From a virus (Duplodnaviria; Caudoviricetes), in IMG/VR virus record IMGVR_UViG_2930734477_000003, positions 5,708 to 69,707 of that record: a stretch of DNA of 64,000 bases; one strand, given 5' to 3'. The notes below the pieces were generated by a model. That model did no database searches. It was not told the origin of the DNA and saw only the letters and a program-made list of their open reading frames with translations. This document shows positions 2,130 to 44,809 of the stretch, in pieces (the stretch's first letter is position 1; each line of letters opens with the position of its first letter). The position numbers were made by a program, and so were the translations under genes.

Positions 2130-3602
2130 TCAGGCCCCGAAGTCGAACAGGGCGATGTCCAGGAGGTCGCCGGGCGTGAAGTCGCCGGCGATGTCCTGGA
2201 GCGAGCTGTAGTTGTCGGCGATGTCCTGGAGGGTGAAGCCGGCGGCCTCCAGGACCGACGGCCACGCCTCGGTCTGCTGCACCTCCAACTGGAACCACCG
2301 GTAGGAGTCGTACCAGTTGGGCGACTCGGTGTCGTCGGAGAGCGCGTAGTAGCCGTCGAGGCGGCTCAGCGAGTCCTGCTTGCGGAACAGCAGGACGCCC
2401 TCGGTGAGGTCCGCGAGGACGGCGTTGAGCGCGTCGCCGGCGGCGTCGGTCTCCGTGCGCACGGTCATCGTGGTGGACGGCGCGGACCGCGTCTTGCCGA
2501 CGACGATGATGCGGCCGCCCGCGTTGAACTTGGTCGCGTCGCGGGTGCGCTGCCACTCCAGCGGTGTCTCGATGCGCACCGCCGCGCCGATGCCGCGGAC
2601 GGCGTCGGAGATGACGTCGGAGTCGACGGTCGACGTGATCGTGCTGGAGTAGATCGTCCACTGGAGGCCGTTGACGTCGGTGAGGACCGCCAGGTACTCG
2701 TGCGCGACCCCGAACGGCTGCTCCGCGTCGACGCGGAGCAGCACGTCGCTGCCGCTCACGTCGACGTCGACGGCCGCGCGCACCGGGGTGAGGGTGTCGC
2801 CCACCTGCCGGTAGAGGCCGACACTGGCGATGTTGTCGGCGAGGAGCCCGGTCGCGGAGATCAGGTTGCGCGGCGGGAACACGGTCTGCGGGAAGGCTTC
2901 CATGTCGGTTCCGGCTTCGCGCAGGCGCAGCACGCCGGCGACGCCGGTGGACGCGGAGCTGAGTGTCGCGGCCAGGGTCGGCGCCTGGGTGCCTGATCCG
3001 GAGGAGACCGCGCCGGTCGCGGTGACGAAGCGGGAGTCGTGGCCCGCGGTGATGGCGTCGTCGGCGCGCTCGGTGATCGTGCCGAAGGTGATGCCGGACG
3101 CGGTGATCGCCTCGGCGCTGAAGCTGGCCGTGGACAGGGGGATGCCGTAGCCGATGACGGCCGTGTCGCCCGCGACCCAGGTCAGGGCGGTGCTCGAGGC
3201 GGCGGAGAAGCCGGTGCCGGAGGAGGTGTCCTCGCCGAAGGCGTACGCCCACCGCCAGCCGGTCCCGGCCGACCGCGTGAAGGAGTAGATGCGGGCGGCG
3301 ATCGTCGACCCGGTGCCGCCGGTGGGGATGGACACGGTGGGCGCGGTGTCGGAGGCCACCAGCTCCCGCACGAAGAAGGTGAGGCGGCGGGGCCCGGCGG
3401 CCGCGCCGAACGCGCCGCCGCCCCCGCTGGCGGAGCCCGCGAACGTCCACCCTGACGGGGTGGCCGGGACGGGATCGTCCTGGTGTCCGGACACGACCTG
3501 GAGCACGGCGAGCATCCCGGCGCTCGCTCCGGCCGGCAGGGCGGGCGTGACCGACTCCGCTGCCGACGAGGAGGCCCCGGCGGCGCCGAACGAGATCGTC
3601 AT
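2130..3602 (-). CDS. Minor tail (distal tail-like) protein with N-terminal beta-sandwich insert
   Basis: 490 aa immediately after tape measure gene. Confidence 0.75.
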   Translation of the reverse strand: MTISFGAAGASSSAAESVTPALPAGASAGMLAVLQVVSGHQDDPVPATPSGWTFAGSASGGGGAFGAAAGPRRLTFFVRELVASDTAPTVSIPTGGTGSTIAARIYSFTRSAGTGWRWAYAFGEDTSSGTGFSAASSTALTWVAGDTAVIGYGIPLSTASFSAEAITASGITFGTITERADDAITAGHDSRFVTATGAVSSGSGTQAPTLAATLSSASTGVAGVLRLREAGTDMEAFPQTVFPPRNLISATGLLADNIASVGLYRQVGDTLTPVRAAVDVDVSGSDVLLRVDAEQPFGVAHEYLAVLTDVNGLQWTIYSSTITSTVDSDVISDAVRGIGAAVRIETPLEWQRTRDATKFNAGGRIIVVGKTRSAPSTTMTVRTETDAAGDALNAVLADLTEGVLLFRKQDSLSRLDGYYALSDDTESPNWYDSYRWFQLEVQQTEAWPSVLEAAGFTLQDIADNYSSLQDIAGDFTPGDLLDIALFDFGA

Positions 3603-6600
3603 CCGCGCGGCCCCACCTTCGCCTCGTACGCCATCTTCTTCTCACTGGCCTTGATCATCGGGCGGACCACGCCCTGGAACATGCCGAGCAGCTCGCCGCT
3701 GTCGAGGCGCAGTTCGCCGGTGAGCTGGCCGTCGCCCGTGCCGCCGCTCGCCTGGACCGCGGCCGCCAGTTCCCGGACGGCCTGCGCCTGCCGGACGGCT
3801 TCGGTCCCGGCCGGGCTGGGGATGACGATGCGGCGGGTGGAGACGCCGACGGCGGCGTTGGCCATGCGCTGCGCGGAGGTGACGACGGTCGGGGTGTGGA
3901 CGTCGATGCCCTCGGCGACGCCGAGGGCGACGTTCTTGCCGATCTGGTCGCGCATGACCACCGACGGGCTTTTGATCTTGAGGGCTTTCTTGATCTGCTT
4001 GACCAGCTCGGACGCCAGTTTGCTGATCTGCTGGCCGAGCTCCTTCTCCTGGCTCTTCAGGCCCGCGAGGAAGCCCTTCCCGGCATCCTTGCCGCTGTCG
4101 AACATCAGATCGGCCATGTCCCGGCCGAAGCTGGTGGCGAGGCTGTTGCCCGACTTCATCAGCGAGTTCAGCTTGGCGATGTCCTGGGTGGTGACCGAGC
4201 GGTCCGACAGGAGCGTCGCGAGCTGGCTGCCCGGCCCGGCGTCCGACAACTGCTGGAGCAGATCCTTGGACGCGCCGCGCGCCTTCAGCGACTTGCTGAG
4301 CGAGACGAAGCCGGACGCGGTCTTCTGCTGCCCGGTGAGCTGCGATATCAGATCCTTGACCGAGCCGGCGGAGGTGCCGGCGATGGAGAGGAACTCCTTG
4401 ATGTTCCCGGCCTGGTCGGTGGCGTACTCGTTCGCGGCCTTGATCTGGGACTGGATGGAGGCCCGCTTGTCGGCGAGGGTCTGGAGCCTGGAGCCCTTCT
4501 TCTGGATGCTCGCGGCCGTCTTGTCGTAGCCGGCGTTGAGGAGTTTGGTCGCCAGGCTCTTGACCGTGGAGCCGATCTTCGCCGACGTGCCCGTCTGGAG
4601 CGTCTTGAGCAGGCCGGTCTTGATCGTGTTGGAGATCGAGTTCTTCGCCGACCGCTTCGCGTTCTTCAGGCTCACGTTCGCGGCCGCGAGCTCCTTCTGG
4701 GCCGCCTGGAGCTTCTTCTGCGCCGCGGCGAGGCCCTTGCGGCGCCGCTTCGCGGTGGCGACCGCCTCTTTGGCGTCCTCGACCTTGGCCCGCGCGCGGC
4801 GCTGGCGGTCGGATGCGTTCTGGATGGTGCCGGAGGCGTAGCCGGGCAGCTTGATGCCCATCTGGCCGGCCATGGCCATCGAGTCCTTGTTGGAGAAGAT
4901 GCGGGTCCCCTTCGGGGTGACCTGCATCAGCTCGGGGCCCTTCTCGCCCACCCACGCGGTCTGGCCGAACGGGGCGAGCCCGCCGCGGGTGCCCTTGGCG
5001 TAGCCGCCGGGCCTGGTCATGACGCTGACCCAGTTCGCGCCGTAGCGGTGCATGGCGTAGTTGACGCCGGCGTAGATGTTGGCGAGCGGGTCGTAGATGC
5101 CGCGGCTCTTGAAGGGGCCCGCGTACGCGGCGAACGTGCTGGGGATGGTCTGCATCAGGCCCTGGCTGGGGTGCCCGGCCTTGGCGTTGGAGTCCCACAG
5201 GTTGATGGCCATCGGGTTGCCGCCCGACTCCATCTGGATCCGCTTCAGCACCGGCTGGAGCGCGCTGCCCGGGGCGCCGAGCATGGCGAGGACCTGGGAG
5301 ACCAGCGGCGCCCACGTCCCGCCGCCCTTACCGCCGCCTCCGCCGCCGCCGCCGAAGAGGCTGCCGAAGATGTCGCCCAGCTTGGAGCCGAGGCCGCCGA
5401 GCGCCTTGAGCGCCTTGCCGGGCAGGCTGGAGACGGAGACGAGGCCCTTCTTCACGATGGAGCCCAGGGCGCTGGGCATGTCGCCGAAGATCTTCCGGGC
5501 GATGGCTCCGCCGCTGGTCTTGGCGAGGCCCTTGAAGAGGCCCGCGACCAGGTGGCCGCCGATGCCCTCGAACACCTTCGACGGCGAGTGGATCCCGAAG
5601 TAGCTCTTGACCGCGTTGACGACGGGGTCGACGACGTTCTTCTTGATCCACGACCCGACGCCCTTGATCGCGCCGGTGATGCCGGACTTCAGCCCGGAGA
5701 TCAGCGCGGTTCCCTTGGCCGTCAGCCACGTGCTCGCCTTGGAGAACGCGCCGGTCACGGGCGAGATCACATGGGTCTTCGTCCACCCGGCGATGCCCTT
5801 GGCCACGCCGATGGCGCCGGACTTGAAGCCGGCCACCAGCGCGCGGCCCTTGGCGAGCAGCCAGGTCCCGGCCGACCGGAACGCGCCCACGACGGGGTCG
5901 ACGACCCACTTCTTCCCGAAGGCGCCGATGCCCTTCGCCGTGGAGATGGCGCCGGACTTGAAGCCCGCTACCAGCGCGCGGCCCTTCGTCAGCAGCCAGG
6001 TGCCCGCGGACTTGAAGGCGCCCACGACCGGGTCGACGATCCACTTCTTGCCGAAGGACCCGATGCCGGTGGCCACGCGGATCGCGCCGGACTTGAAGCC
6101 GGACACGAGCGCCGAGCCCTTGGCGAGCAGCCAGGTCCCGGCCGACCGGAACGCGCCCACGATCGGGTCGATGATGATGCGCTTGGCGAAGCCGCCGATG
6201 CCCTTTGCCGCGGTGAGCAGTCCTCGCCCGAGGCCCTTGACGAGGGCGGTTCCCTTGGAGACCAGCCACCCGGCCGGCTTGGCGAAGGGTTTGAGGATGA
6301 GCCCGAGGAGTTCACCGATCTTCGACAGGACCCAGGTGGCGCCCTTTTGGAAGCCGGTGCCGAGGGACTTGAGGGCGCCCTTGCCCTTTTCGAGCAGCTC
6401 CAGGCCCCACAGGCCCAGGCGCGTGGTGATCAGCCCGGCCTCGCGCTCGATGACGGCCGCGCCCCGGGGGAAGATCTTGGCCAGGCCCTTCCAGAGGCCG
6501 GAGCCGATGAATTTGAAGATCTTTCCGAAGAGCTTCGAGATCGGCGCCGTGATCTTGGACAGGCCGGAGAACAGCGGCGCGAACATCTTCAGGATCGGGA

Positions 6601-8443
6601 TCTTCGACAGGACCTTGCTGATCGGTCCCGCGATCTTGCCGATGCCGAAGAGGGACAGCGCGGCGATCACCGTGTCCCAGAAGTGCTTCTTCCAGAAGTC
6701 CGCGGAGAACAGCTCCTGGCCGAAGCTGGCAATGAAGCCGATCATGAAGCCGAGGGTCTTGCCGCCGACCTGCTTGCCGATGTCGACCCAGTCCAGCGAC
6801 GCCATCGCCGACACGAGCTGCTTGGCGAGTTTCGCGCCGTTCTTCGCCAGCCACTGGAAACTCGTGCCGAGCGCACTGCCCAGCTTCTCGCCGACCTTGG
6901 TCCAGTCGACCGCGGAGATCCCGCCGGTGACGGCGTTGCGGATCTGCTCGCCCAGCTTCTGCGCCGTCGACTTCGGAGGTGCCGTCTTGACCTTCGCCAG
7001 AGGCGCGGTCAGCCCGGACCCGCCGTGCGGCATCGGCGCGAGCGCAGGCCCCTTGACGCCGGCCGCCGGCGCGACCTGCCCGACCCCGTAGTGCGGCTTC
7101 GGGGCGAGCGCGGGCCCCTTCGCGGCCGCCCCCGTCTTGCCGGAGCCGAGGTGCGGCGAGGAGTCGAACAGGCCGCCCATCAGGTCCTTGGCGGCCTTCT
7201 TCGTGCCGGTCAGGCCCGTGAAGAAGTCGCTCACCATGGTCTTGGCCTGGGTGAACCGGGACCTGATCTGCTCGACGGGCACGATGTCGGCGACCGCGTG
7301 GGAGAACGCCTTGACCTTCGGGATGCCGTCGTCGTTGACCCAGCCGGCCAGGTTGCGCACGGCGAGCGTGACCCCGGACAGCGCCTTGGTGGCGCCGGCC
7401 AGCAGGCCGGTGTCACCGACCTCGATCATCAGCCCTTCCCACGCGTTCTTCAGCCTGATGACCTCGCCGCGCCAGCCCTTCATCTGGATCTTCGCGATGC
7501 GGTCCGCGGTGCCGCCGGAAGCTTCCAGCTCCTTGGTCATCCGGGCGAGCTTGTCCGAGCCCTGCTGGATCAGCGCGGCCATACCGGGGCCCGCCCGCTG
7601 ACCGAAGATCGTCATGATGTCGCCGGTCGTCGCGCCCTTCTTGGCGAGCTGATCGACGATGGAGGTCAGCGGCCGCAGCTTCCCGTCGGCCGTCGACACG
7701 TTCACGCCCAGGTCCTTGAGCGTGGTGGCGATCTTCTTCGTGGGCGACAGGAGCCGGGTCACCGCGCCGCGCAGCGCGGTGCCCGCCATGGACGCCTTGA
7801 TGCCGGCGTTGCCCATGAGGGCCGTCGCCGCGACGGCCTCCTCGAACTGGAGCCCCGCCTGGTGTGCGATCGGCCCCGAGTACTTGAAGGCTTCGCCGAG
7901 GTCATCGACGCTGGTGTTGGCCTTCACGGACGCCTTGACCATGGCGTCGACGGCGTGCGGGATCTCCCCGATCTTCATGCCGTAGCCGGTCAGGACGTTC
8001 GTCGTGATCTCGGCGGCCCGCGTCAGGTTGAGCTGCTCCGACGACGCCAGCGACAGCACCGACGGCATCGCCCCGTAGATCTGGTTCACCGTCAGGCCGG
8101 CCGTGGCGAGCTGCGCCATGGCGTCAGCCGACTGCGCCGCCCCGTACTGGGTCGACTTGCCCAGATCTTTGGCCTGGTTGCGCAGCCGGGCCAACTGTTT
8201 GCCGGTCGCCCCGGACAGGGCGGCGACCCTGTTCATGTTCTTCTCGAAGTCGCCCGCGGCCTTGATCGACGCCGCGCCGAGCGCGCCCAGACCGATGGCC
8301 CCGACCGCCAGGCCCGCCTTGATGGCGGCGCCGACCTTCGTCGACGTGGACGCCAGCCGGTTCGCCGACCGGCCGACCTGCCGGAACGTCGCAGAAGCCC
8401 GGTCCCGGCCGATGAGGGCGTAGACGATCGCGGACGTGGCCAT
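3599..8443 (-). CDS. Tape measure protein with lytic transglycosylase (SLT) domain
   Basis: About 1614 aa; TP901-type core (GIKASMAGTALR); MESGGNP...SQGLMQ...YDPLANI SLT motifs; follows chaperone. Confidence 0.95.
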   Translation of the reverse strand: MATSAIVYALIGRDRASATFRQVGRSANRLASTSTKVGAAIKAGLAVGAIGLGALGAASIKAAGDFEKNMNRVAALSGATGKQLARLRNQAKDLGKSTQYGAAQSADAMAQLATAGLTVNQIYGAMPSVLSLASSEQLNLTRAAEITTNVLTGYGMKIGEIPHAVDAMVKASVKANTSVDDLGEAFKYSGPIAHQAGLQFEEAVAATALMGNAGIKASMAGTALRGAVTRLLSPTKKIATTLKDLGVNVSTADGKLRPLTSIVDQLAKKGATTGDIMTIFGQRAGPGMAALIQQGSDKLARMTKELEASGGTADRIAKIQMKGWRGEVIRLKNAWEGLMIEVGDTGLLAGATKALSGVTLAVRNLAGWVNDDGIPKVKAFSHAVADIVPVEQIRSRFTQAKTMVSDFFTGLTGTKKAAKDLMGGLFDSSPHLGSGKTGAAAKGPALAPKPHYGVGQVAPAAGVKGPALAPMPHGGSGLTAPLAKVKTAPPKSTAQKLGEQIRNAVTGGISAVDWTKVGEKLGSALGTSFQWLAKNGAKLAKQLVSAMASLDWVDIGKQVGGKTLGFMIGFIASFGQELFSADFWKKHFWDTVIAALSLFGIGKIAGPISKVLSKIPILKMFAPLFSGLSKITAPISKLFGKIFKFIGSGLWKGLAKIFPRGAAVIEREAGLITTRLGLWGLELLEKGKGALKSLGTGFQKGATWVLSKIGELLGLILKPFAKPAGWLVSKGTALVKGLGRGLLTAAKGIGGFAKRIIIDPIVGAFRSAGTWLLAKGSALVSGFKSGAIRVATGIGSFGKKWIVDPVVGAFKSAGTWLLTKGRALVAGFKSGAISTAKGIGAFGKKWVVDPVVGAFRSAGTWLLAKGRALVAGFKSGAIGVAKGIAGWTKTHVISPVTGAFSKASTWLTAKGTALISGLKSGITGAIKGVGSWIKKNVVDPVVNAVKSYFGIHSPSKVFEGIGGHLVAGLFKGLAKTSGGAIARKIFGDMPSALGSIVKKGLVSVSSLPGKALKALGGLGSKLGDIFGSLFGGGGGGGGKGGGTWAPLVSQVLAMLGAPGSALQPVLKRIQMESGGNPMAINLWDSNAKAGHPSQGLMQTIPSTFAAYAGPFKSRGIYDPLANIYAGVNYAMHRYGANWVSVMTRPGGYAKGTRGGLAPFGQTAWVGEKGPELMQVTPKGTRIFSNKDSMAMAGQMGIKLPGYASGTIQNASDRQRRARAKVEDAKEAVATAKRRRKGLAAAQKKLQAAQKELAAANVSLKNAKRSAKNSISNTIKTGLLKTLQTGTSAKIGSTVKSLATKLLNAGYDKTAASIQKKGSRLQTLADKRASIQSQIKAANEYATDQAGNIKEFLSIAGTSAGSVKDLISQLTGQQKTASGFVSLSKSLKARGASKDLLQQLSDAGPGSQLATLLSDRSVTTQDIAKLNSLMKSGNSLATSFGRDMADLMFDSGKDAGKGFLAGLKSQEKELGQQISKLASELVKQIKKALKIKSPSVVMRDQIGKNVALGVAEGIDVHTPTVVTSAQRMANAAVGVSTRRIVIPSPAGTEAVRQAQAVRELAAAVQASGGTGDGQLTGELRLDSGELLGMFQGVVRPMIKASEKKMAYEAKVGPRG
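5625..6300 (-). repeat. About 5 copies of a 135-bp (45-aa) repeat inside tape measure gene
   Basis: Recurrent DPVVGAF(R/K)SAGTWLL(A/T)KGxALVxGFKSGAI. Confidence 0.85.
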
Positions 8444-8496: not shown

Positions 8497-8703
8497 CTAC
8501 AGGTTCGGCATGCGGGACTTACTGGGGCCGCCTGCGGCCCTGCGCTCCTCCGCCTCGCGCTCCTCCAGCTCGATGCGGTAGAACGCGCGCCACTCGCTCA
8601 GCTCTCGGGAGCTGATCCGTCGGAGGAGCTCGTCGACGGTGCATCCGAGGTCTCGGGCGAGGACGAAGGCGAATCGCCGGTCTGGCCGGCCTCGGAGTTT
8701 CCC
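8497..8703 (-). CDS. Tail assembly chaperone -1 frameshift extension (gpGT-like)
   Basis: Slippery G-GGA-AAC at 8703-8697; -1 frame reads RRFAFVLARDLGCTVDELLRRISSRELSEWRAFY. Confidence 0.85.
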   Translation of the reverse strand, partial: GKLRGRPDRRFAFVLARDLGCTVDELLRRISSRELSEWRAFYRIELEEREAEERRAAGGPSKSRMPNL

Positions 8704-9065
8704 TCGATCTCCCGCTCGTTGGCGTCGCCCATGCCGGACAGCTCGGCCGCCACGTCGTACAGCATGTCGAGGATCGCGCCCGACTTCTTGCCGAGGGCGG
8801 GCGCGTCGGTGTCCTTGAAGAGCCGGTTGCCGCTGTCGTCGACGAGGCACTTGACCAGCAGCTTGGCGCGCGCGTTGTCGCGGACCAGGACGACTTCCTT
8901 CGTCCCGTCGGGCTTGGGCCGGATCTGCTGGATGCTCGCCTCGTAGGCGTCGCGCTCGATGCCGGTCAGGCCGCGCACGAGGACCTCGCCGCCCCACGCG
9001 GGGACGTCGACGGGCTTGATCTGGGTGTCCTCGGCTCCGAGGATCGCGTCTGCGGACAGCGCCAT
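8598..9065 (-). CDS. Tail assembly chaperone (gpG-like)
   Basis: VDVPAWGGEVLVRGLTG motif; position before tape measure. Confidence 0.85.
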   Translation of the reverse strand: MALSADAILGAEDTQIKPVDVPAWGGEVLVRGLTGIERDAYEASIQQIRPKPDGTKEVVLVRDNARAKLLVKCLVDDSGNRLFKDTDAPALGKKSGAILDMLYDVAAELSGMGDANEREIEGNSEAGQTGDSPSSSPETSDAPSTSSSDGSAPES

Positions 9066-9073
9066 GGGTGAAG

Positions 9074-9159
9074 TGCCTTTCTGGCGTTACGGATCATGAC
9101 GGCGGCCAGTGCCAGGCCGTGATGAGCCGTCGAGCGCCAGTGCCAGGCGGGCGACAGCG
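9074..9159 (-). promoter_or_regulatory. Structured 5' leader, copy 1 (twin UGGCACU-loop hairpins plus AGAAAGG RBS) before tail chaperone
   Basis: 85/86 identical to 17746-17831; hand-folded hairpins. Confidence 0.8.
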
Positions 9160-16342: not shown

Positions 16343-17737
16343 TCAGAACGATGGGGCGACCAAGCCGGTCCCCGCCACCTCGACGATCGACTTCGGGTAC
16401 CGGGCCGCCGTGAACGCCAGGTAGCCGTACACCTGGAGCCGCACCGTGAGCGTGCCCGAGCCCACGTCCGGCAGGACCCGGGAGCGGATGCCCGACTCGT
16501 ACAGCAGCAGGTCCGACGCGCGGACGATGTGCACCACGTCCTGGTTCGTGCCCGCGCCCAGCGTGGTGGGCATGTTCGGGTCGGTGATGACGGGCAGGCC
16601 GTGCATCTGGCCCACCACCTGCTCCGCGGCGACCGCGCCGAGCGTGGCGATGTTGTTCTGCGGGTTGCCCGCGTCCGGCGTCACCAGGGGACGGCCGTTG
16701 TTGTCCGTCGCCGCGAGCAGGTACGCCCACCGCCGCGGGTGCATGACGATCGCGGTCGGCGGCATGAACCGCAGCGTGTGGACCCGCTGCACCGCGTCCG
16801 CGATCTTCGAGTAGAGCTGGGCGACGGTCGGCGTGGCCGACGTGTAGGTGACCGTCTCGATGCTGCCCGTCGCCCGGACGCCGGTCACCTGGCCGGACAT
16901 GCCGGAGCCGGAGATGACCTGGAGGTCGAGCTTCGTCGCGTAGTCCGCCGTGAGGTCCCGGAAGACGACCTCGTCGAAGGAGACCGGGGACTGGTCGAGG
17001 AGCTGGATCGCCACGTCCTGCTGGCCGGCGATGGTGCGCACCGGGGCGGTGATGAACGTGTCGGTCAGGTCCGTCTCCGACACGGCGCCGTTGTCGGAGG
17101 TCTGGATCGCCGTGGTGGTGCCGGTGGCGACCTTGGGGATGTTGATGGAGTCGGTGCCGCCGGGCAGCGGCTGCGACAGCGCGAGGTTGGCGTACGCGCG
17201 GCCCGCGCGGGCGACCTCGATGAACTGGTTCATCAGCCACAGCGGCGGGACGGCGTAGCCGCCGTTGCCGTCGGTGCGGTTGAGGTCGCGGTACTCCTGC
17301 TCGGAGGCCACGTCCTGGGCGTGCCGCTGGAGACGGTCGCGCGCCTGCCCGTCGGTGTCCATGTTGAGCTGGACCTTCGCCAGGTCCTGGAGGTACGAGC
17401 GGCCGTTGCCGCGCACGTAGGTGCGCGCCTCGTTGACGGTCTCGACGCGGGCCTTGGCCCGCTTCACCGCGGCGGCGCCCTCGGTGACCGAGCGGGAGCG
17501 CTCGGCCTCCTCGGACAGCTCCGAGATGCGCTCGTCGAGCTGGCGCAGCTCGTCGTCCTTCGCCTTGATCTGCGCGGTGAACTCGCGGAACTCCGCGTCC
17601 TCCTCCGGGAGGAGGTCCTCGCGGGCCTCCTCCTCGGCGAGGTCGGTGATGGCCTTGCGCTTGGCGAGGATGTCCTCGCGCTCGCGGGCGGTCTGCTCGC
17701 GTCGTGCGACCAGCCGCCGGAAACGCTCGTCTGACAT
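16343..17737 (-). CDS. HK97-fold major capsid protein with N-terminal coiled-coil (delta-like) domain
   Basis: GGYAVPP, VMHPRRW and GLPVITDPNMP motifs; follows protease. Confidence 0.95.
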   Translation of the reverse strand: MSDERFRRLVARREQTAREREDILAKRKAITDLAEEEAREDLLPEEDAEFREFTAQIKAKDDELRQLDERISELSEEAERSRSVTEGAAAVKRAKARVETVNEARTYVRGNGRSYLQDLAKVQLNMDTDGQARDRLQRHAQDVASEQEYRDLNRTDGNGGYAVPPLWLMNQFIEVARAGRAYANLALSQPLPGGTDSINIPKVATGTTTAIQTSDNGAVSETDLTDTFITAPVRTIAGQQDVAIQLLDQSPVSFDEVVFRDLTADYATKLDLQVISGSGMSGQVTGVRATGSIETVTYTSATPTVAQLYSKIADAVQRVHTLRFMPPTAIVMHPRRWAYLLAATDNNGRPLVTPDAGNPQNNIATLGAVAAEQVVGQMHGLPVITDPNMPTTLGAGTNQDVVHIVRASDLLLYESGIRSRVLPDVGSGTLTVRLQVYGYLAFTAARYPKSIVEVAGTGLVAPSF

Positions 17738-17745
17738 GACGAGTC

Positions 17746-17831
17746 TGCCTTTCTGGCGTTACGGATCATGACGGCGGCCAGTGCCAGGCCGTGATGAGCC
17801 GTCGTGCGCCAGTGCCAGGCGGGCGACAGCG
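17746..17831 (-). promoter_or_regulatory. Structured 5' leader, copy 2, before major capsid gene
   Basis: 85/86 identical to 9074-9159. Confidence 0.8.
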
Positions 17832-23612: not shown

Positions 23613-24245
23613 TTACAAGACTGCCTTCCACGCCTCCGTGCAGACGTGGCATCCCCGTCGGCCCGGCAGATCGGGCAGGTCGTACCCGTTGTCACCACTC
23701 ACGTCGTGTCCGCGAGGGCAGCGGATCATCCTGCTCGCCTTGCTCTTGTACCCTCGGCGCCGGTCAGTCTTCTTCTTGACCGGCCCTTCGGCGAGGCAGT
23801 CGAAGCAGATGCGTACCCATCCGTCGAGTCGGAACACGGGCACAAGGCTGCTCCAGTCGTGACCACGGCGACACACCGGCCTCCGCAGGTCGATTCGCCG
23901 CTGATTCTCCAAGGTGGTCACCCACTCCAAGTGGGCAACATTCAGGCAGTCGCGGACCTGGCAGAGGTGGTCGACTTCCAGCCCCGTGTCCTCGGGAATC
24001 GCCCCGAAGGCGATCGCCCAGGCGACATGGTGAGCAGGGACATGGTGACGGCGATCGCTGATCTTGGCACGGCCCCAGCCGCCTTTGTTGACCTTGCCGC
24101 GCCAGTGAATGCACCCAACGTCGTCGAGCACGGTGCAGAGCGGGCGTCCGTCCGGCTCACTGCACAGGGAACGGAACAGTTCAATGTCCGCGTCGGTAAG
24201 CGCAAGTTGCCTACGAGGAGCAGGCGTGGAAGTACGCTGAAGCAC
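23613..24245 (-). CDS. Free-standing HNH homing-type endonuclease
   Basis: CIHWRG...VDHLCQVRDCLNVAHLE...EN; two CxRGH zinc motifs; lower GC. Confidence 0.88.
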   Translation of the reverse strand: MLQRTSTPAPRRQLALTDADIELFRSLCSEPDGRPLCTVLDDVGCIHWRGKVNKGGWGRAKISDRRHHVPAHHVAWAIAFGAIPEDTGLEVDHLCQVRDCLNVAHLEWVTTLENQRRIDLRRPVCRRGHDWSSLVPVFRLDGWVRICFDCLAEGPVKKKTDRRRGYKSKASRMIRCPRGHDVSGDNGYDLPDLPGRRGCHVCTEAWKAVL

Positions 24246-30382: not shown

Positions 30383-30723
30383 CGGCTGCTCCAGGGGTGG
30401 TCGGGGAGGTGGAGGGTGATGCGGCGGAACTCGTCCGTGCACCGGGCGTCGTGTGCCTGCCCGCTGGACGTGTGGGCGAGGAGGCAGCAGGGGTTCAACG
30501 GGGGAGGCGCCTCCCCGAGTACGCGACGGCGTTCCCATGCGGCTTCGGCGGTGGTGCGGTAGCACCAGCCGTACGCGGCGCATCCGTGCGGGTCGTCGTC
30601 GTGCACGCACACGAGGCGGTGGTTGACGAGCATGGGTACGGCGATCCACCGGCAGCCGGACTCGTGCGCGATGACGAGGCCTTGCCACAGGGGGTCCGTC
30701 CGGGGGTTCTCGATGAGGTTCAT
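30379..30723 (-). CDS. Hypothetical protein
   Basis: MNLIENP...YGWCY; coupled. Confidence 0.6.
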   Translation of the reverse strand: MNLIENPRTDPLWQGLVIAHESGCRWIAVPMLVNHRLVCVHDDDPHGCAAYGWCYRTTAEAAWERRRVLGEAPPPLNPCCLLAHTSSGQAHDARCTDEFRRITLHLPDHPWSSR

Positions 30724-32027
30724 CCTGCGCTGTCCCCGTCCTCCGGCTGCCGCTTCTGGCTGGCCCGCCAGGTAGCGACGACGCATTCCTGTGAGCAGTA
30801 CGGCCGGCCATCACCTGTCAGGAACACGTGGTCGTCCGCCGCGTAGTCGGTGAGGTCGTCGCCGCAACGCGGGCAGCGGGGACGCTCCGGTGTGCCAGGA
30901 CACGAGTCCGACGCTTCCTCGTCGTCGGCGTCGTTGAGTGCGGCGGTCAGTGCGCGCCGCAGACGAGCCGCCTCGTCGAGCGGGAGGACAAGCTGGCCCG
31001 CCGGGACCGACCGGGCGAGGTTGACCGCCCTGCTGATCGGCACGGTGATCCGGCCGTCTTCGTGGGTGACGTCTGCGGACTCGCCCCAGAGCAGTAGCGG
31101 CAACGACTCCGGCTCGTCGGCGGCGGGTGTCTCCGGGGCGGCGGGCTGGGCCTCGGCGTCAGCCACCAGGCGCGGCCACGGCCCACCATGACGGCCGGTC
31201 AGACGCCGCTCCGGGTGCACGACGCTGAAATGTGCGCTCGCCCCGCTCGGCGTGTGGAGGGTGACGGGGTGCGGGCAGAGGGGGCAAGGACCGGCGGTGA
31301 GGTCGATGTCGGCGGCCTCCCGGAGTACGGCGGCCCGGGCGGTGGCCGGGTAGTGATGTGCGCGGACGCGGTGCAGCCAGGCGTCGACGGCGGCCTCGTC
31401 GGGCTGGTCGGGGAGGGCGGAGCGGTTCTCGTCGAAGGCGGTTTCGTACCGGGCGAGGAGGGGTCGGGCGGCTGCCGGGTCGGCGGCGACCTGTGCGCCG
31501 AAGTCGTGGTAGGCGTCGGGGTCGTCGACGCGGATGGTGAGCCGGCCGGTGGTGTACAGCTCCAGGCCCTGGTGGCAGAGCCGCTTGAGGTGGCGGGCGT
31601 GCTTGGCGGTGCGCTTGCGGGTGTCGGCGGAGAAGCTGCCGTCGCCGCGGGCTTCGAGGCGGCGGAACTGCTGGGTGGCGTAGCCGAGGTAGGCGTCGCG
31701 GACCTTCTTCGCGGACAGGAATGCGGTGCGGATGCCGATCAGCTCGTCGCCGAGGGGGGTGCGGACTTCGTACAGCTCGTCGGGGAGCCAGACGAGTTCC
31801 ATGACGGTGGGGTTGCCGCCGAGGGCGAGGCGGCACCACTTGGCGGCTTCGTGGAGGGTGCGGTCCGGGCTGGTGGTGACGTGGGACTCGGCCGGCTTGT
31901 GGAGGCCGTGCAACTGCTGGGTGGGGGTGGCGAAGATGCCGAGCCGGTCGGTGTCGGAGCCGGGCCGGGCGAGGCCGTACGCGGTCGAGCCGACGATCCC
32001 GGACAGGAGCACGTTGATGTGCTTCAT
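30720..32027 (-). CDS. Pol-beta-superfamily nucleotidyltransferase (YcgL/RlaP-like) with Zn-finger C-terminal extension
   Basis: VGSTAYGLARPGSDTDRLG; NPTVMELVW; GYATQQ; KHARHLKRL. Confidence 0.85.
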   Translation of the reverse strand: MKHINVLLSGIVGSTAYGLARPGSDTDRLGIFATPTQQLHGLHKPAESHVTTSPDRTLHEAAKWCRLALGGNPTVMELVWLPDELYEVRTPLGDELIGIRTAFLSAKKVRDAYLGYATQQFRRLEARGDGSFSADTRKRTAKHARHLKRLCHQGLELYTTGRLTIRVDDPDAYHDFGAQVAADPAAARPLLARYETAFDENRSALPDQPDEAAVDAWLHRVRAHHYPATARAAVLREAADIDLTAGPCPLCPHPVTLHTPSGASAHFSVVHPERRLTGRHGGPWPRLVADAEAQPAAPETPAADEPESLPLLLWGESADVTHEDGRITVPISRAVNLARSVPAGQLVLPLDEAARLRRALTAALNDADDEEASDSCPGTPERPRCPRCGDDLTDYAADDHVFLTGDGRPYCSQECVVATWRASQKRQPEDGDSAG

Positions 32028-36051: not shown

Positions 36052-36972
36052 TCATGCCGCGCTGCCGAAGATCCGGGCGTACAGGCGGTCGAGCTTCCTC
36101 TCCTGCTGTCTCGCCCGTCGCTCCTGCTGCCGGCGGTCCTGGCGCATCGGCCGGTCCTCCAGGTGCGCGGCGGCCACGCAGTACGGCATGTCGCAGCGGG
36201 ACGTCACGGTGCCCTCGGGCTCACGCCCGTGCTCGATCCGGAAGGCGATCTTGTACGCGGAGTGCACGGTGTTCGCGAACGAGACGGTCGGGGTGGTGTG
36301 CGATGTCCGCCCCGTCCATCTGATGTGGCCGTCCTCTGCCGGCTCGGCATGCCGGGCGAACGCCTCGTCCACCGATGTCGGGAGCAGGCGTATGCGGCGC
36401 GGCGCCGACGGATCGCGTTGGGCCCGTTTGTCGAGGACTTTGCACCGGCCGCAGTACGCGGTGCCGTCGGCTTTGAACTTCGCGTGCTTGCTCATGCTGT
36501 GGCCGCTGACGCATGTGGCCGGGATGTCGCCGAGTCCTCGCTCGGCGCGCGTCCGCAGCCGATCGCTCTCGCGGGCGGCCGTGTCGTTGACGTGGTCGGG
36601 GGCGACGCAGTGGGGGTAGTCGCAGTCCGCCTTGACGTATCCCCGTGCCGGCCGGCCGTGGTGTTTCTCGAAGGCGATGGCGGCCGGACTGTAGGTGTCT
36701 CCCTTGTAGCGCATCAGCGGGGTGCCGGTGGCCTTCGCGCGCTCGCCCGTCCATTCGAGGTGGCCGCCGTCGACCGGGCGGGTCTTGCTGGCCCACTTCT
36801 CCTCGAGGGTGAGCGGCTGCAAGGGGGTATTGGGGATGCCGAGTTCGCGGCGGATGCGGGCGACGCGGTGCTTGTCGCAGTGAAGGTCGCGTGCGATCCG
36901 CAGGTTGCTGTGGCCCTGCCGGAGTGCCGCGACGATTTCGGCGTGGGTGGCGTTCTGCCGGCCCGGGCTCAT
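36052..36972 (-). CDS. HTH plus two degenerate HNH-like zinc-binding domains
   Basis: HLEWTG...CDYPHCVAPDHV and HIRWTG...CDMPYCVAAAHL. Confidence 0.8.
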   Translation of the reverse strand: MSPGRQNATHAEIVAALRQGHSNLRIARDLHCDKHRVARIRRELGIPNTPLQPLTLEEKWASKTRPVDGGHLEWTGERAKATGTPLMRYKGDTYSPAAIAFEKHHGRPARGYVKADCDYPHCVAPDHVNDTAARESDRLRTRAERGLGDIPATCVSGHSMSKHAKFKADGTAYCGRCKVLDKRAQRDPSAPRRIRLLPTSVDEAFARHAEPAEDGHIRWTGRTSHTTPTVSFANTVHSAYKIAFRIEHGREPEGTVTSRCDMPYCVAAAHLEDRPMRQDRRQQERRARQQERKLDRLYARIFGSAA

Positions 36973-41125: not shown

Positions 41126-41551
41126 TCAGAGGCCGGCGATCTCGCGCAGGCGGGCGAGGGCGCGCGGCTCGGTGTCGTACCAGAACGTCTGCGTCTCGCT
41201 GAGGCCGAGAGCGTCGCGGGCGACGTCGGGGATGGCCCGGCGCTCGCCGTCCTTCTCCGCGTAGAGGGTCATGTACCGGGCGTACTGCCTGCCGTCGTCG
41301 TAGGTGCGGGTGACCTGCGCACCGGCGCCGTCCCAGACGATGGTCCAGCCGGTGACGTGCGCGGCCCATCCGGCGGCGCAGAGCGTGGTGCCGCAGACCG
41401 GCGTCTGGGCCGGGGTCAGCCGGTTGCTGACCATGAGGCCGGCCCAGATGTCCATGCAGAAGGCGTCGGGCTGGCTGTCGATCCCGTCGAGGACGGCGGC
41501 CGCCACGGCGGCGGGGGTGTCGGGGTACTGCTTGACCGGGGTGTCGGCCAT
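41126..41551 (-). CDS. Hypothetical protein (CGTTLCAAGW motif)
   Basis: GGAG RBS; true start lies downstream of the tRNA. Confidence 0.75.
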   Translation of the reverse strand: MADTPVKQYPDTPAAVAAAVLDGIDSQPDAFCMDIWAGLMVSNRLTPAQTPVCGTTLCAAGWAAHVTGWTIVWDGAGAQVTRTYDDGRQYARYMTLYAEKDGERRAIPDVARDALGLSETQTFWYDTEPRALARLREIAGL

Positions 41552-41618
41552 CGCAACTCCATTGCTGAGAGGCGTTGTTCGGAAGGCCACGCTGTTGTGG
41601 TGGCGGGAAGCTGTGCGG

Positions 41619-41692
41619 TACGCCCGGCGAGGTTCGAACTCGCACTTGGCCGCTTTTAAGGCGGTGCCTCTGACCAGTTGGGCTACGGGCAT
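41619..41692 (-). tRNA. tRNA-Leu (anticodon UAA, reads UUA), atypical: short variable loop, 4-bp anticodon stem, no encoded CCA
   Basis: ATGCCCG-TA-GCC-CAACTGGTCAGA-GGC-A-CCGC-CTTAAAA-GCGG-CCAAGT-GCGAG-TTCGAAC-CTCGC-CGGGCGT-A folds as a cloverleaf. Confidence 0.85.
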
Positions 41693-41697
41693 GTGGT

Positions 41698-41742
41698 GGA
41701 CCGCGCCCCGCCCGGGACGGGGAGGAGCGCGGGGCGCGGTCC
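41698..41742. other. Perfect 14-bp inverted repeat just 5' of the tRNA
   Basis: GGACCGCGCCCCGC / GCGGGGCGCGGTCC. Confidence 0.6.
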
Positions 41743-41788
41743 GGGGTGGCGGCCGGGAGGGGGGATGTCCCGGCCGCCGGTCTGTGGG

Positions 41789-42043
41789 TCAGGTGAAGCA
41801 GGTGAAGTCGAAGGTGACGTCGTGGCCGTTGCGGTCGGTGACGGAGATGTCCCAGACCTCGCCGCGTTCGCCGAGCCGGTTGACGAGGCGGCCGATGGTC
41901 TGGATGCCGCGTGCGGGGAGGGTGCGCGTGTGGGTGCCGTGCTCGCTGGTGTAGCTGAGTGTGTAGATCTTCACGAACCGGCCGGTGCGGGGGTCGCGGC
42001 GGAGGATTCCGTGGTGGTGGGCGGGTTGGGTTCTGGTGGCCAC
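41789..42043 (-). CDS. Small hypothetical protein
   Basis: AGGAGG RBS, GTG start; RRDPRTGRF. Confidence 0.65.
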   Translation of the reverse strand: MATRTQPAHHHGILRRDPRTGRFVKIYTLSYTSEHGTHTRTLPARGIQTIGRLVNRLGERGEVWDISVTDRNGHDVTFDFTCFT

Positions 42044-42187: not shown

Positions 42188-42766
42188 TCACCCGGGCCCT
42201 TCCGCGGCGTTCCTCGTCAGGAGGTACAGGCGGCTGCCGGAATACCGGGCCGGGCGGCCCGTCTCCTCGTCCTCGCAGCCCGGGTTGACGCACCAGGCGC
42301 GCGGCCGGTCGTCGTCCGGCCGGCAGTGGATCGTCCTCTGGCCGCACACCAGGCAGACGACGCCGCGCATCTCCCGCGACGGCGCCTGGAGCCCGAGCAC
42401 GGTACGCACCGTGGAGTGCCAGGTGCCGACGGTGGACGCCACCTCACGGACCCGGCCGGTCGCCTCCGCCCCCGCGGGGAGCGCCTTCAGCGCGCGGTCC
42501 CAGCGCTGCATGTGGCTGGAGGCCCGCAACTGCATGTCGAGGATGCGGGCCTGGGCCTTGATCGATGTGGACCAGTGGATGGGGTCGAGCGAGGCCGGGG
42601 GCCGGGAGCCGGGCGTGGCCCCGCCCCCGGCCTGGCGGGGCTGCGCGGTGCGGATCGCGAGCCGGTCGAGGCGTTCCATGAGGCCGGGGCCGCGGTCCCC
42701 GGGGTGGTCCTCGTCGCCGGTCCAGCGGTCCACGAGGTCGGCGACGAGGGCGTCAAGCGTCTGCAT
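42188..42766 (-). CDS. Zinc-ribbon protein, possible late-gene regulator
   Basis: PGSRPPASLD...CLVC...WCVNPGC. Confidence 0.7.
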   Translation of the reverse strand: MQTLDALVADLVDRWTGDEDHPGDRGPGLMERLDRLAIRTAQPRQAGGGATPGSRPPASLDPIHWSTSIKAQARILDMQLRASSHMQRWDRALKALPAGAEATGRVREVASTVGTWHSTVRTVLGLQAPSREMRGVVCLVCGQRTIHCRPDDDRPRAWCVNPGCEDEETGRPARYSGSRLYLLTRNAAEGPG

Positions 42767-43736
42767 CGGCGCTCCCGGCAGGCGCGACGTTCGGGTCGTC
42801 GATCTGGGCAGATCGCCATGCCGTCGGCGGCGGCCAGCCCTTCTTGCGTGCCATGGTGCGTGCGATCCTCGCGCCCTTGGATTCAGGCGCTGGGATGTTC
42901 TGCAATTCGGCGTAGAGGAGGGTCATGGCCTCCGCCGTCGCCCGGACCACGCCAGAGCCTTGGCGCCCGCGCTTCATGATGTTCGCGGCCCACCAAGGTG
43001 AAAGCCCCAGACGGCGGACGATCTCACTCACGGGATATCCGATCGCGGCAAGCGCTTGGATGCGCCGCACAGTTCCGGTCGAATCGATGACCTCGTGTGT
43101 TCCGTCGAAGTCGCGGCGTCGCCGGGAGCGCTCCTTCTCGCATGCCCGGCATGTGCGAGAGCCATCCTCATTGACTCGCGTGTTCTGCGGCGTCCATGCA
43201 TGACCGTGCTTGCAGGTCTCTTTGGCCCGCCGTGTTTCGCTGGCCTTGGCTGCGTTCGCCAGTCGCTCTTCGTCCGTCAGTTTCTTGTTCACGCCGACGA
43301 TCGTGTTGCGGTTCTTTTCGCGGCCAGCCGACGTCCATCTCTGGGGGCGGCGGCCATTTCGCGACCTAGACGGTTTCTCATGCAGCTTGTTGCGCATGGC
43401 GTTGTCACGGGCTCGGCTGGAATGTTCGGGCGCACAGATAGTGTCCTGGGTGGTCAGCCCGGCCATTTCGCGCAGCTCCCACTTATCAATGCCATGGATC
43501 TTGTTCGTGTGCACAGCGACGACCTTGTACGGACCTCGTCCGCAGATCGGGCACAGCTGCGCTTTGATGGCCGCCTGCACGGCTTCTGGCTCGTATGACA
43601 CGGCGCGCTCTGTCTGGCCCGCCGGCGTCTTTCCGTTCATGGCCGCCGCACGCAGCGCCTCGGCGGTGGCGCCGCGAAAGCCTTTGACCTTGAAGCGATT
43701 CGGGTCGCCGAGCCGCTTCGGCTTAGGAGTTGGCAT
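42753..43736 (-). CDS. Multi-module DNA-binding protein (MucR-like Zn finger, CxxGH Zn motif, C-terminal HTH)
   Basis: CPICG...HTNKIHG; CKHGH...CRAC; GTVRRIQALAAIGY; lower GC. Confidence 0.75.
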   Translation of the reverse strand: MPTPKPKRLGDPNRFKVKGFRGATAEALRAAAMNGKTPAGQTERAVSYEPEAVQAAIKAQLCPICGRGPYKVVAVHTNKIHGIDKWELREMAGLTTQDTICAPEHSSRARDNAMRNKLHEKPSRSRNGRRPQRWTSAGREKNRNTIVGVNKKLTDEERLANAAKASETRRAKETCKHGHAWTPQNTRVNEDGSRTCRACEKERSRRRRDFDGTHEVIDSTGTVRRIQALAAIGYPVSEIVRRLGLSPWWAANIMKRGRQGSGVVRATAEAMTLLYAELQNIPAPESKGARIARTMARKKGWPPPTAWRSAQIDDPNVAPAGSADADA

Positions 43737-43995
43737 CGGTCGTCTCCGCGCAGTCCATGGCGAAGGTGGCGCCTCCCCGCTTGGGGTTCTTGGGCCGCTC
43801 GGCCTCGAAGGAGATGACCAGCTCGGTGTCGTCGCCGTGTACGTGGACGTCTCCTGCGCGTACACCCTTGGAGGCGAGGGTGCCGCGTTCGAGGTCGGCG
43901 ACGCGTACGGCCTTCTCGACTTCGGTGTGGTGGGCGGGCTGTTTCAATACCCATTCGTGGCGGTCGATCGTGATGACGCGCTTCTCAGCGTCCAT
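43723..43995 (-). CDS. Hypothetical protein
   Basis: AAGGAG RBS; 90 aa. Confidence 0.65.
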   Translation of the reverse strand: MDAEKRVITIDRHEWVLKQPAHHTEVEKAVRVADLERGTLASKGVRAGDVHVHGDDTELVISFEAERPKNPKRGGATFAMDCAETTDANS

Positions 43996-44809
43996 CGGGG
44001 TTCTCCTTGCGGTAGTTCTCGCGGGCGCCCTGAACGCCTGTCAGCCTGGGAAGTTGCGGGATGGTGGTGGCGAGCCATGAGCCGGGCTCCGTGGTGAACG
44101 GCAAGGGTGCGAAGGTCTCCCACCAGGAGCGCAGCGCGGTGGACCGCACGGCCTCCTTCGTCCGCCGGTCGACGTACTCGACGGGCCGCTCCCCGGTGCG
44201 GCGTACGGTGACCCGGCCGCGCTTACAGCCCTCGGGGTAGTCGTTCCAGTTCACCCCGACCTCGGACCACAGCAGCTCCTGCATGCCGCCCGTCGAGACG
44301 CCGTGCAGGCGCCGATGCGAGAAGTAGGCCTGAGCAGCCATGGAGATGCTGTTGCGTACGGCGTCGCGCTGACGCCAGATCAGGTAGTTCGCGACTTCCA
44401 CGGGGTCGGAAAGCGTAAACAGGCGCGAGTCGAACAGCGCCCGACGGCCCGGCCGGCGCTCGTTGAGTACGGCGGTGGCCAGGGCTGCGCTGATGCTGAG
44501 CTGCTTGGCGGCCACCCCGCCGAACCAGGGCTCGGTCTGCTCGCCGGCGAAGTCGCAGGCGAGGACGCTGATCTCGTCGGACTGGGTGTAGGCCAGCACG
44601 GCTCCGGTGATCTCCTGGCAGAGGGCCTCGGCGACGGCGTCCATGTCGGCCATGAACGTCTCGTCGAAGGGCTTCTCGGCGCCGCGCAGGTAGGAGTGGA
44701 ACGCGCGGCCGTCCACACGGAGCACCGTGTAGGTGCGGCGTGGCAGGAGCAGCCGGTAGGGGGCTTCGTGGCGCTTCATGCGGTCGCCGATGGCATCGCG
44801 GTTGCTCAT
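43985..44809 (-). CDS. Thg1-like 3'-5' nucleotidyltransferase (tRNA-His guanylyltransferase family)
   Basis: GDRMKRHE, LRVDGRAFH, YTQSDEIS, FDSR and WRQRDAVRNSI motifs. Confidence 0.92.
   Translation of the reverse strand: MSNRDAIGDRMKRHEAPYRLLLPRRTYTVLRVDGRAFHSYLRGAEKPFDETFMADMDAVAEALCQEITGAVLAYTQSDEISVLACDFAGEQTEPWFGGVAAKQLSISAALATAVLNERRPGRRALFDSRLFTLSDPVEVANYLIWRQRDAVRNSISMAAQAYFSHRRLHGVSTGGMQELLWSEVGVNWNDYPEGCKRGRVTVRRTGERPVEYVDRRTKEAVRSTALRSWWETFAPLPFTTEPGSWLATTIPQLPRLTGVQGARENYRKENPDGR

Follow-up and report, generated by a model that had tools for sequence, protein, structure and literature searches.

The 64,000-nucleotide (nt) stretch analyzed here, referred to below as the window, corresponds to bases 5708-69707 of a 69,707-nt IMG/VR provirus record and carries a single tRNA gene, a tRNA-Leu of type I (short variable loop) with the anticodon UAA. 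The codon in question, UUA, together with the host tRNA bldA, forms the classic translational switch for how Streptomyces develops and makes antibiotics. Having compared the gene with its structural family, the codon usage of the phages that carry such genes and the slot in which it lies, we tentatively propose that this tRNA is a UUA decoder independent of bldA, of a class with which high-GC phages would supply their own UUA decoding, here with no phage client in the sequence on record. We consider this reading a serious possibility that falls a little short of an even chance. An earlier note, made from the window alone, had offered three functions for the gene (an override of host bldA control, the replacement of a tRNA cut by an anticodon nuclease, or a decoy), and the comparative data appear to point first to a plainer role than these. 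A mobile, natural UUA tRNA on a scaffold accepted by the host could free phage genes from the bldA switch or, alternatively, shift that switch in lysogens.

The tRNA gene and its structural family

When ARAGORN was run on the 64-kb window, a single gene was returned, tRNA-Leu(taa), at positions 41617-41692 of the minus strand, and this gene was also the only tRNA that the program found in the whole 69,707-nt record. Rfam RF00005 matched positions 41619-41692 with a score of 44 bits (gathering score 29; E 4.6e-06 over the window as a whole), the sole Rfam hit in the window. The two methods therefore agree on a genuine UUA-reading tRNA gene on the phage, as the earlier note had proposed, and its remark that this was the only tRNA found holds for the window and for the full record. 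The gene and its anticodon are located as follows.

41617-41692, minus strand: tRNA gene, type I tRNA-Leu scaffold with anticodon UAA (ARAGORN, Rfam RF00005 and the family model R1 described below)
41656-41658, minus strand: anticodon U34-A35-A36 (ARAGORN and reading of the sequence)

Written as RNA of the minus strand, the gene reads AUGCCCG-UA-GCCC-AACUGGUCAG-A-GGC-A-CCGC-CUUAAAA-GCGG-C-CAAGU-GCGAG-UUCGAAC-CUCGC-CGGGCGU-A-CCG. It measures 74 nt to A73, followed by CC and then G (C74-C75-G, not CCA). The anticodon loop is C-U-U-A-A-A-A with U34-A35-A36 at 41658-41656, and such an anticodon reads UUA and probably also UUG by wobble. We observed A73, A14 and A15, a 5-nt variable loop (CAAGU) whose last nucleotide is U48, an anticodon stem of four Watson-Crick pairs plus an A.C mismatch, and intact acceptor and T arms. 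In the D arm, the stem has 3 bp and C13.A22 is mismatched; this is the tRNA-Leu type of D arm, which the generic 4-bp D-stem model of Rfam sees as two mismatches. All the features that had been listed for the gene (loop CU-UAA-AA, A73, A15 and U48, short variable loop, four stem pairs and CCG) are thus present in the sequence. The tRNA begins with ATG in frame with the 141-amino-acid (aa) gene downstream, so that gene callers could predict a false open reading frame of 188 aa (41126-41692, minus strand), whose sole TTA is the tRNA anticodon; no other long open reading frame of the record has a TTA.

A pattern for the compact tRNA-Leu scaffold with anticodon UAA matched at least 120 contigs of IMG/VR. 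Among the 120 matches listed, 119 were called tRNA-Leu(taa), 117 of those with a length of 73-79 nt, and the GC content of the 120 loci ranged from 0.31 to 0.65 (median 0.41). From the 117 short genes, 111 were parsed (six failed the regular expression) and 98 distinct sequences were kept after collapsing identical ones; the family covariance model R1 was built from the alignment of these 98. The alignment shows a cloverleaf in which the D stem has 3 bp, the anticodon stem has 5 bp and the variable loop is short. In this structure, 99.2% of the cells were paired compared to 73.0% in shuffles, the covariation score was 0.724 compared to 0.196 (0/500 shuffles as high), both sides had changed in 15 of the 20 pairs, and G10-C13, A14 and A15 were invariant. 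Scores on R1 were as follows.

Window tRNA: 72.9 bits, E 2.2e-17
Training members listed: 77.6-95.6 bits
High-GC peers (18 lone tRNA-Leu(UAA) genes): 67.4-84.5 bits
tRNA-Ile copies: 55-62.5 bits, with other isotypes at 62.5 bits or less
Host type II bldA-type tRNA: 44 bits
Host type I tRNA-Leu(CAA) of S. canus (L160): 79.6 bits

The window tRNA has the Leu-type D arm of the family (3-bp stem, non-paired 13.22, A14, A15, G18 and G19). Counting C43 as stem, its variable loop has 5 nt, as in 103/111 of the parsed members; with A.C 27:43 left out of the stem it has 6 nt, as in 8/111. This loop ends in U in 106/111 members, A73 is found in 111/111 and CCA is encoded in 50/111 only. The earlier note had described the structure as non-canonical, and this was borne out in part: the short variable loop, A73 and the absent CCA are normal for the type I tRNA-Leu scaffold, whereas the 4-bp anticodon stem and the position lacking at 26/27 are real departures. 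The main structural oddity is indeed at the 26/27 junction, where one nucleotide is missing and the anticodon stem is left with 4 bp; the junction is laid out as A, then 4 bp, then an unpaired C, one nucleotide short of the family layout, in which nucleotide 26 is followed by a stem of 5 bp.

In Streptomyces, and in phages too, a tRNA-Leu is not aberrant for having a short variable loop. In S. coelicolor, tRNA-Leu(CAA) is itself of type I, and a single leucyl-tRNA synthetase (LeuRS), ScoLeuRS, charges both this tRNA and the type II tRNA-Leu(UAA), according to excerpts of PMC6614811. The same excerpts state that variable-loop length, U8-A14 and C74 matter for ScoLeuRS and A73 does not, and that tRNA-Leu(CAA) with its anticodon switched to UAA can stand in for the bldA tRNA (PMC6614811, citing its ref. 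38). Across the whole S. canus genome, the best R1 match was the host tRNA-Leu(CAA), which shares this D arm and whose variable loop also has 5 nt. The window tRNA resembles this Streptomyces type I tRNA in its D arm (GUAGCCCAA..GG..AG.AGGC), 5-nt variable loop, A73 and C74. It is only 67% identical to the S. canus gene, however, and differs in being phage-borne, in its natural UAA anticodon and in having one nucleotide fewer at 26/27; it is predicted to do the same job as the engineered UAA version (PMC6614811, in excerpt).

With bldA, the window tRNA shares the anticodon UAA and thus the codon read. By contrast, the bldA-type host gene (L032) is a type II gene of 84 nt with a long variable arm, and the identity between the two is 53%. 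At most, the window tRNA would be a functional analogue of bldA, and not a homologue derived from it. Two origins were considered and rejected: descent from host bldA, on account of the type II structure of the host gene, its 84 nt, the 53% identity and the 44 bits on R1, and a point mutant of the tRNA-Ile(UAU) usually found in the same slot, on account of 62% identity to the copy in the related provirus G001 and a different D arm.

The same scaffold is found in the compact tRNA-Leu of Gordonia phage Boopy and of the Felix O1-like phage wV8 (76.7-78.6% identity, blastn), and blastn with the window tRNA also matched a high-GC metagenomic phage. Compact tRNA-Leu genes of phage arrays and IMG/VR contigs score 62-84 bits on R1; they come mostly from lower-GC phages in which UUA is common and often lie in arrays, whereas the window tRNA is a lone tRNA in a phage of 71% GC whose host hardly uses UUA. 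No named Streptomyces phage was matched by blastn with either the window tRNA or a high-GC peer, an exact 30-nt pattern of the window tRNA had 0 matches in IMG/VR, and a strict pattern of scaffold plus UAA gave only one match in 401 Streptomyces genomes, an odd tRNA that ARAGORN cannot name. A literature search that had most subscription journals outside its reach returned no paper on a Streptomyces phage or prophage tRNA reading UUA and none on the compact phage tRNA-Leu family.

UUA codons in this phage and in the high-GC class

The record holds 28 TTA triplets, 17 on the plus strand and 11 on the minus strand, and each was placed in its reading frames. In gene calls based on the GC content at third codon positions (GC3), we observed 0 in-frame TTA in 20,296 codons, and 0 in 19,992 codons at a stricter cut-off. 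This exhaustive census extends the partial check of the earlier note, which had seen no TTA in frame in the called genes, and simple codon supply does not explain the tRNA in this phage.

We then compared other carriers. A search with the anticodon stem-loop of the window tRNA returned 19 further IMG/VR loci, 18 of them with a GC content of 0.68-0.73, and each held exactly one tRNA, a tRNA-Leu(taa) of 74-78 nt (L184, at GC 0.53, was left out of the local TTA census among these loci). Fifteen of the 19 records were scanned whole, and the gene was the sole tRNA of the record in 13 of them, ARAGORN predictions of 93-99 nt given as tRNA-Ala or tRNA-Ser being ignored as devoid of Rfam support. Ten of the 15, together with G000 and the relative G004, entered a whole-record census of in-frame TTA, with the following counts.

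With tRNA-Leu(UAA), 12 records (this one included): 25 TTA in 198,940 codons, in 22 of 1002 genes; 10 records with at least one TTA
Without tRNA-Leu(UAA), 6 relatives: 1 TTA in 95,780 codons, in 1 of 482 genes; 1 record with at least one TTA

Carriage of the tRNA and the presence of TTA were associated, with a Fisher p of 6e-4 when codons are counted (0.018 once the richest record, G422, is taken out) and of 0.013 when records are counted. The six controls were all drawn from one phage family, so that the records do not count as independent. Of the 10 records with TTA, 3 have a gene with this codon no more than 2.5 kb from the tRNA (a genome with terminal repeats being taken as circular). In the high-GC lineage formed by G422, L175, L179 and L183, in-frame TTA codons were seen in the portal, ClpP-like prohead protease and major capsid genes, and 356 nt separate the portal gene from the lone type I tRNA-Leu(UAA). 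The relative G004 has both a tRNA-Leu(UAA) and a TTA in a YqaJ-type recombinase gene. Near-identical 131-aa proteins with TTA at codon 36 were also observed near the record ends of G416 (3524-3919) and G410 (74535-74930); they could be phage lysogeny genes or host flank.

A link between Streptomyces phages and the UUA/bldA switch has been described from the opposite side: the terminase genes of phage phiHau3 and of the StrepC.1 prophage contain TTA codons and depend on host UUA decoding (PMC10732093, in excerpt), whereas the phage studied here has the decoder and no TTA. The excerpts of that paper cover TTA in phage terminase genes and not phage tRNAs, and those on phage Coruscant mention 41 tRNAs with no discussion of UUA (PMC7650747). 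No description of the pattern of a lone type I tRNA-Leu(UAA) with TTA codons in high-GC phages was found in the literature searched, and its recurrence may outweigh the single gene of the window.

The presence of the gene, its place in the structural family, the conserved slot described below, the Streptomyces host genus and the codon counts are observed; that the tRNA is expressed, leucylated and active in decoding, and why it was selected, is what we infer from these comparisons. Since the host type I tRNA-Leu(CAA) is a substrate of ScoLeuRS, the phage tRNA, if expressed, is most likely leucylated by the host enzyme. UUA would then be read without the host bldA tRNA, and phage genes with TTA would be made independent of a scarce, developmentally regulated host tRNA. 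As most high-GC phages with a lone tRNA-Leu(UAA) hold a few in-frame TTA codons, the role of the class is most likely self-supply with a UUA decoder. In the absence of any TTA from the 69.7 kb on record, the tRNA here would be spare capacity, and its clients could be genes acquired through mosaic exchange or located in the lysogeny end outside the record. The tRNA may alternatively work on mRNAs of the host, or be in the course of being lost.

Besides the dependence among the controls, several observations weigh against a self-supplied decoder. No TTA is in frame in any gene backed by GC3 or homology, this phage and G415 being the carriers without any TTA, and the census rests on our own GC3-based gene caller. 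The 19 IMG/VR loci are contigs without host assignment, and several of the TTA genes counted lie near record ends and could be host flank. The tRNA itself departs from its family: nucleotide 26, present in 111/111 members, is missing; the anticodon stem has four Watson-Crick pairs whereas 103/111 members have a 5-bp stem; pair 2:71 is U.G, which is found in 0/111; and the D loop, with 10 nt, is above the usual length. In addition, the minimum-free-energy fold of the tRNA alone gives no cloverleaf (z = -0.98), to which we attach little weight, unmodified tRNAs often being misfolded in such predictions. A human mitochondrial type I tRNA-Leu is not charged by S. coelicolor LeuRS (PMC6614811, in excerpt). 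Finally, in the slot of related prophages described below, the tRNAs are decayed or absent in L016, L019, L011 and L023, so that slot tRNAs are dispensable.

The tRNA slot, its double hairpin and the host genus

The tRNA is preceded by two hairpins and lies between two genes of the same strand.

41789-42043, minus strand: upstream gene, 84 aa (121 aa from an earlier start), no family match; the hairpins stand directly after its TGA stop
41748-41778, minus strand: hairpin 1, 11-bp stem, CAGACCGGCGGCCG...CGGCCGCCACC, directly after the stop codon of the upstream gene (fold)
41698-41742, minus strand: hairpin 2, perfect 14-bp stem with a 17-nt loop (sequence and fold)
41126-41551, minus strand: downstream gene, 141 aa, phrog_889, function not assigned, with a GGAG ribosome-binding site before its ATG

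Hairpin 2 is the perfect 14-bp hairpin that had been noted 5 nt upstream of the tRNA, and it ends with only ACCAC between them; no promoter was found in these 5 nt between the hairpins and the tRNA. The double hairpin has no T run and for this reason is not called by an intrinsic-terminator scan, so a classic intrinsic terminator was rejected as its identity. Candidate functions are termination, RNA processing and the protection of a 3' end as a cap.

The slot is marked by hairpin 1, whose exact pattern was found in 6 IMG/VR proviruses and 10 Streptomyces genomes, and the stem sequence of hairpin 2 is conserved in most of these 16 related loci. Over the double hairpin as a whole (41698-41778, minus strand), the sequence and not only the pairing is kept in the 16 other Streptomyces prophage loci (L010-L025), even where the flanking genes differ. 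In the provirus G001, the same two hairpins stand before a homologue of the downstream gene (54% identity), but the tRNA between them is a tRNA-Ile(UAU), and the upstream gene of the window (41789-42043) is not homologous to that of G001. A homologue of the downstream gene also follows the slot tRNA in G004. The content of the slot in the 16 related loci was as follows.

10 loci: tRNA-Ile(UAU) directly after the hairpins
1 locus (G004): tRNA-Leu(UAA) in the slot and tRNA-Ile(UAU) 1.3 kb further on
1 locus: cut at the hairpin, with a tRNA-Ile 2.8 kb away in its record
2 loci: without any tRNA
2 loci: with decayed tRNA remnants

The slot of the window tRNA is therefore conserved yet labile, and what it holds are tRNAs for AUA or UUA, both among the rarest codons there. 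ATA codons number 9 in this phage, which lacks tRNA-Ile(UAU), and 7 in G001, which has it; codon counts thus do not predict the slot tRNA.

The decayed remnants behind conserved hairpins were seen in L016 and L019 (Streptomyces echiniscabiei and Streptomyces sp. Ru71), where in one the loop is CTTGTAA and the acceptor stem is broken, and the other is truncated after the anticodon loop; slot tRNAs are thus seen to be lost. In L025, a Streptomyces bullii prophage, a tRNA with the Leu-type scaffold (6966-7040, minus strand), 79% identical to the window tRNA and with anticodon UAU and U73, lies 5 nt after the ordinary slot tRNA-Ile(UAU). Anticodon and discriminator have here switched on one scaffold, so that anticodon switching on this Leu-type scaffold does occur. 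An HNH endonuclease gene (42753-43865, minus strand) lies 1 kb upstream of the slot and could have a part in cassette exchange.

The ten named genomes that carry the conserved slot hairpin are all Streptomyces (10/10), and the streptomycete host on which the earlier note had made its argument depend is thereby supported. The record belongs to a temperate Streptomyces siphophage, its integrase type being taken from a relative as discussed below. In the 401 sampled Streptomyces genomes the same prophage was not found; nine of them gave partial prophage matches (best 83% identical), none of which crosses the tRNA.

Competing explanations and other features of the phage

The tRNA could instead be directed at the host. 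Expressed from the prophage or in early infection, it would let host TTA mRNAs, for example adpA, be translated regardless of bldA timing, as host manipulation or lysogenic conversion, and host development or physiology would be altered to the benefit of the phage. Such a role would fit a phage that has no TTA of its own to serve, and the R1 score, within the range of the high-GC peers, gives no sign of decay. The scaffold is also accepted by Streptomyces LeuRS, a type I tRNA-Leu with UAA reportedly replacing bldA (PMC6614811, in excerpt), and six Streptomyces genomes have one UUA tRNA gene each (PMC4932002, in excerpt), so that an extra copy would alter the supply. Most other carriers, however, have TTA codons of their own, which is a simpler reason for the tRNA, and no report of such an effect was found in our literature search. 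Close relatives, moreover, hold in the same slot a tRNA-Ile(UAU), for which we know of no developmental role. Altogether we judge host manipulation unlikely, although it is the most interesting idea and gains plausibility from the chargeable scaffold; if the bypass were true, lysogens would translate TTA-bearing developmental and antibiotic-pathway genes outside the normal time window. More doubtful still is a specific form of it, in which the prophage would give its Streptomyces host a natural bldA bypass as lysogenic conversion, with a Thg1-like enzyme of the phage maybe mending or editing the imperfect 5' end of the tRNA (U2.G71). This enzyme is one of two candidates for RNA repair encoded by the phage.

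43985-44809, minus strand: Thg1-like protein (3'-5' nucleotidyl transferase), Pfam PF04446 6.6e-20, phrog_4717 1.4e-68
30720-32027, minus strand: RlaP-family Pol-beta nucleotidyltransferase, Pfam PF10127 1.5e-18, phrog_388

Enzymes of the Thg1-like family repair tRNA 5' ends, and the best solved structure for the phage protein is the bacterial Thg1-like protein 4kgk (E 2.8e-48). The Thg1 and RlaP families are both linked to tRNA repair in excerpts of PMC3061083, PMC4820378 and the preprint 10.64898/2025.12.29.696909, and excerpts of the latter describe the addition of 1-2 nt to damaged RNA 3' ends by the RlaP family. Alongside these two enzymes, the tRNA might serve in counter-defence, by replacing or decoying a host tRNA damaged by a host nuclease or toxin. 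Consistent with this, the RlaP and Thg1-like genes are ~0.8 kb apart in G004, phage tRNAs that escape tRNA-targeting defences have been described (PMC10264068, in excerpt), and the anticodon loop differs from that of the host bldA-type tRNA at position 38 (A versus C). On the other hand, a phage without TTA gains nothing for its own genes from rescued UUA decoding, and a nuclease or toxin aimed at the window tRNA is neither known nor identified here. Thg1-like homologues were moreover found in only 4 of the 18 compared records (G000, G001, G004 and G416), one of which, G001, has no tRNA-Leu(UAA), and no RNA ligase was found near the RlaP or Thg1-like gene among 10 neighbouring proteins scanned. 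We consider counter-defence improbable and treat the two genes as context only, any action on the window tRNA being hypothetical.

We give a similarly low chance to a relic or cis-acting element, that is, to a tRNA that no longer decodes and is drifting to loss or is kept as an RNase P/RNase Z processing point, which in the latter case would lie between the hairpin-capped upstream mRNA and the downstream gene. The lack of a client codon in the record speaks for it, as do the departures of the 4-bp anticodon stem, the missing 26/27 nucleotide and U2.G71 from the family (the acceptor and T arms being intact), the degenerate or absent tRNAs in 4/16 related loci and the varying identity of the slot tRNA among relatives. 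The slot anticodons are nevertheless not random, being UAU or UAA in nearly all cases, and the R1 score falls among those of peers from TTA-using phages (L175, for instance, has 75.2). Furthermore, the S. bullii copy in L025 has the same 26/27 junction with a stem of CCGG/CCGG compared to CCGC/GCGG in the window tRNA, a compensatory change that argues against simple decay. By far the least credible to us is tRNA-dependent lysogeny, in which the phage would integrate into and destroy the host tRNA-Leu(UAA) gene and bring a replacement copy. This strategy is established in actinophages, including tRNA-Leu and tRNA-Ile2 cases, and likewise concerns temperate actinophages with a single tRNA gene (PMC10865867). 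The junctions of our provirus are not visible either, since both ends of the record are trimmed at gene borders, the record ending exactly at the start codon of a Cro/CI-type gene. The strategy requires, however, a tyrosine integrase and an attB in a host tRNA gene of the same isotype that integration does not restore, and neither was found in this phage family: PF00589 was detected in 0/5 records (G000-G004), and the relative in the complete genome of S. canus, which spans ~52 kb, is flanked by a 475-aa large serine recombinase with no tyrosine integrase nearby and no tRNA in the surrounding 140 kb (ARAGORN). The bldA-type gene of S. canus is intact and lies elsewhere in the genome than the prophage. 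The serine recombinase, the lack of a flanking tRNA and the lack of a tyrosine integrase in relatives thus make tRNA-dependent lysogeny unlikely, and they suggest that the integrase end of this record has been trimmed off.

As for the remainder of the phage, its GC content is ~71% and ~105 genes were called with the GC3-based caller, nearly all on the minus strand. Family matches include the small and large terminase subunits, portal, major head protein, a 1614-aa tape measure protein, several HNH endonucleases, LuxR-type and Cro/CI-type regulators, a DNA methylase and a glycosyltransferase. No close DNA relative was found by megablast among deposited phages, and known actinophage terminases share no more than 36.5% identity with its terminase, all 1437 matching records being below 60%; G004 is syntenic with this phage over most genes. 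Besides the HNH gene near the tRNA slot, HNH matches were observed in two other minus-strand genes, 23613-24245 and 36052-36972, the latter also matching a PHROG family annotated as WhiB transcription factor. Finally, the 15-mer CTGGCGTTACGGATC occurs twice exactly, at 9081-9095 and 17753-17767, where chance alone predicts 0.12. On the minus strand, both copies stand just upstream of the start of a structural gene (8598-9065 for the first copy and the major head gene, 16343-17737, for the second), and the 15-mer may be a late regulatory or leader motif.

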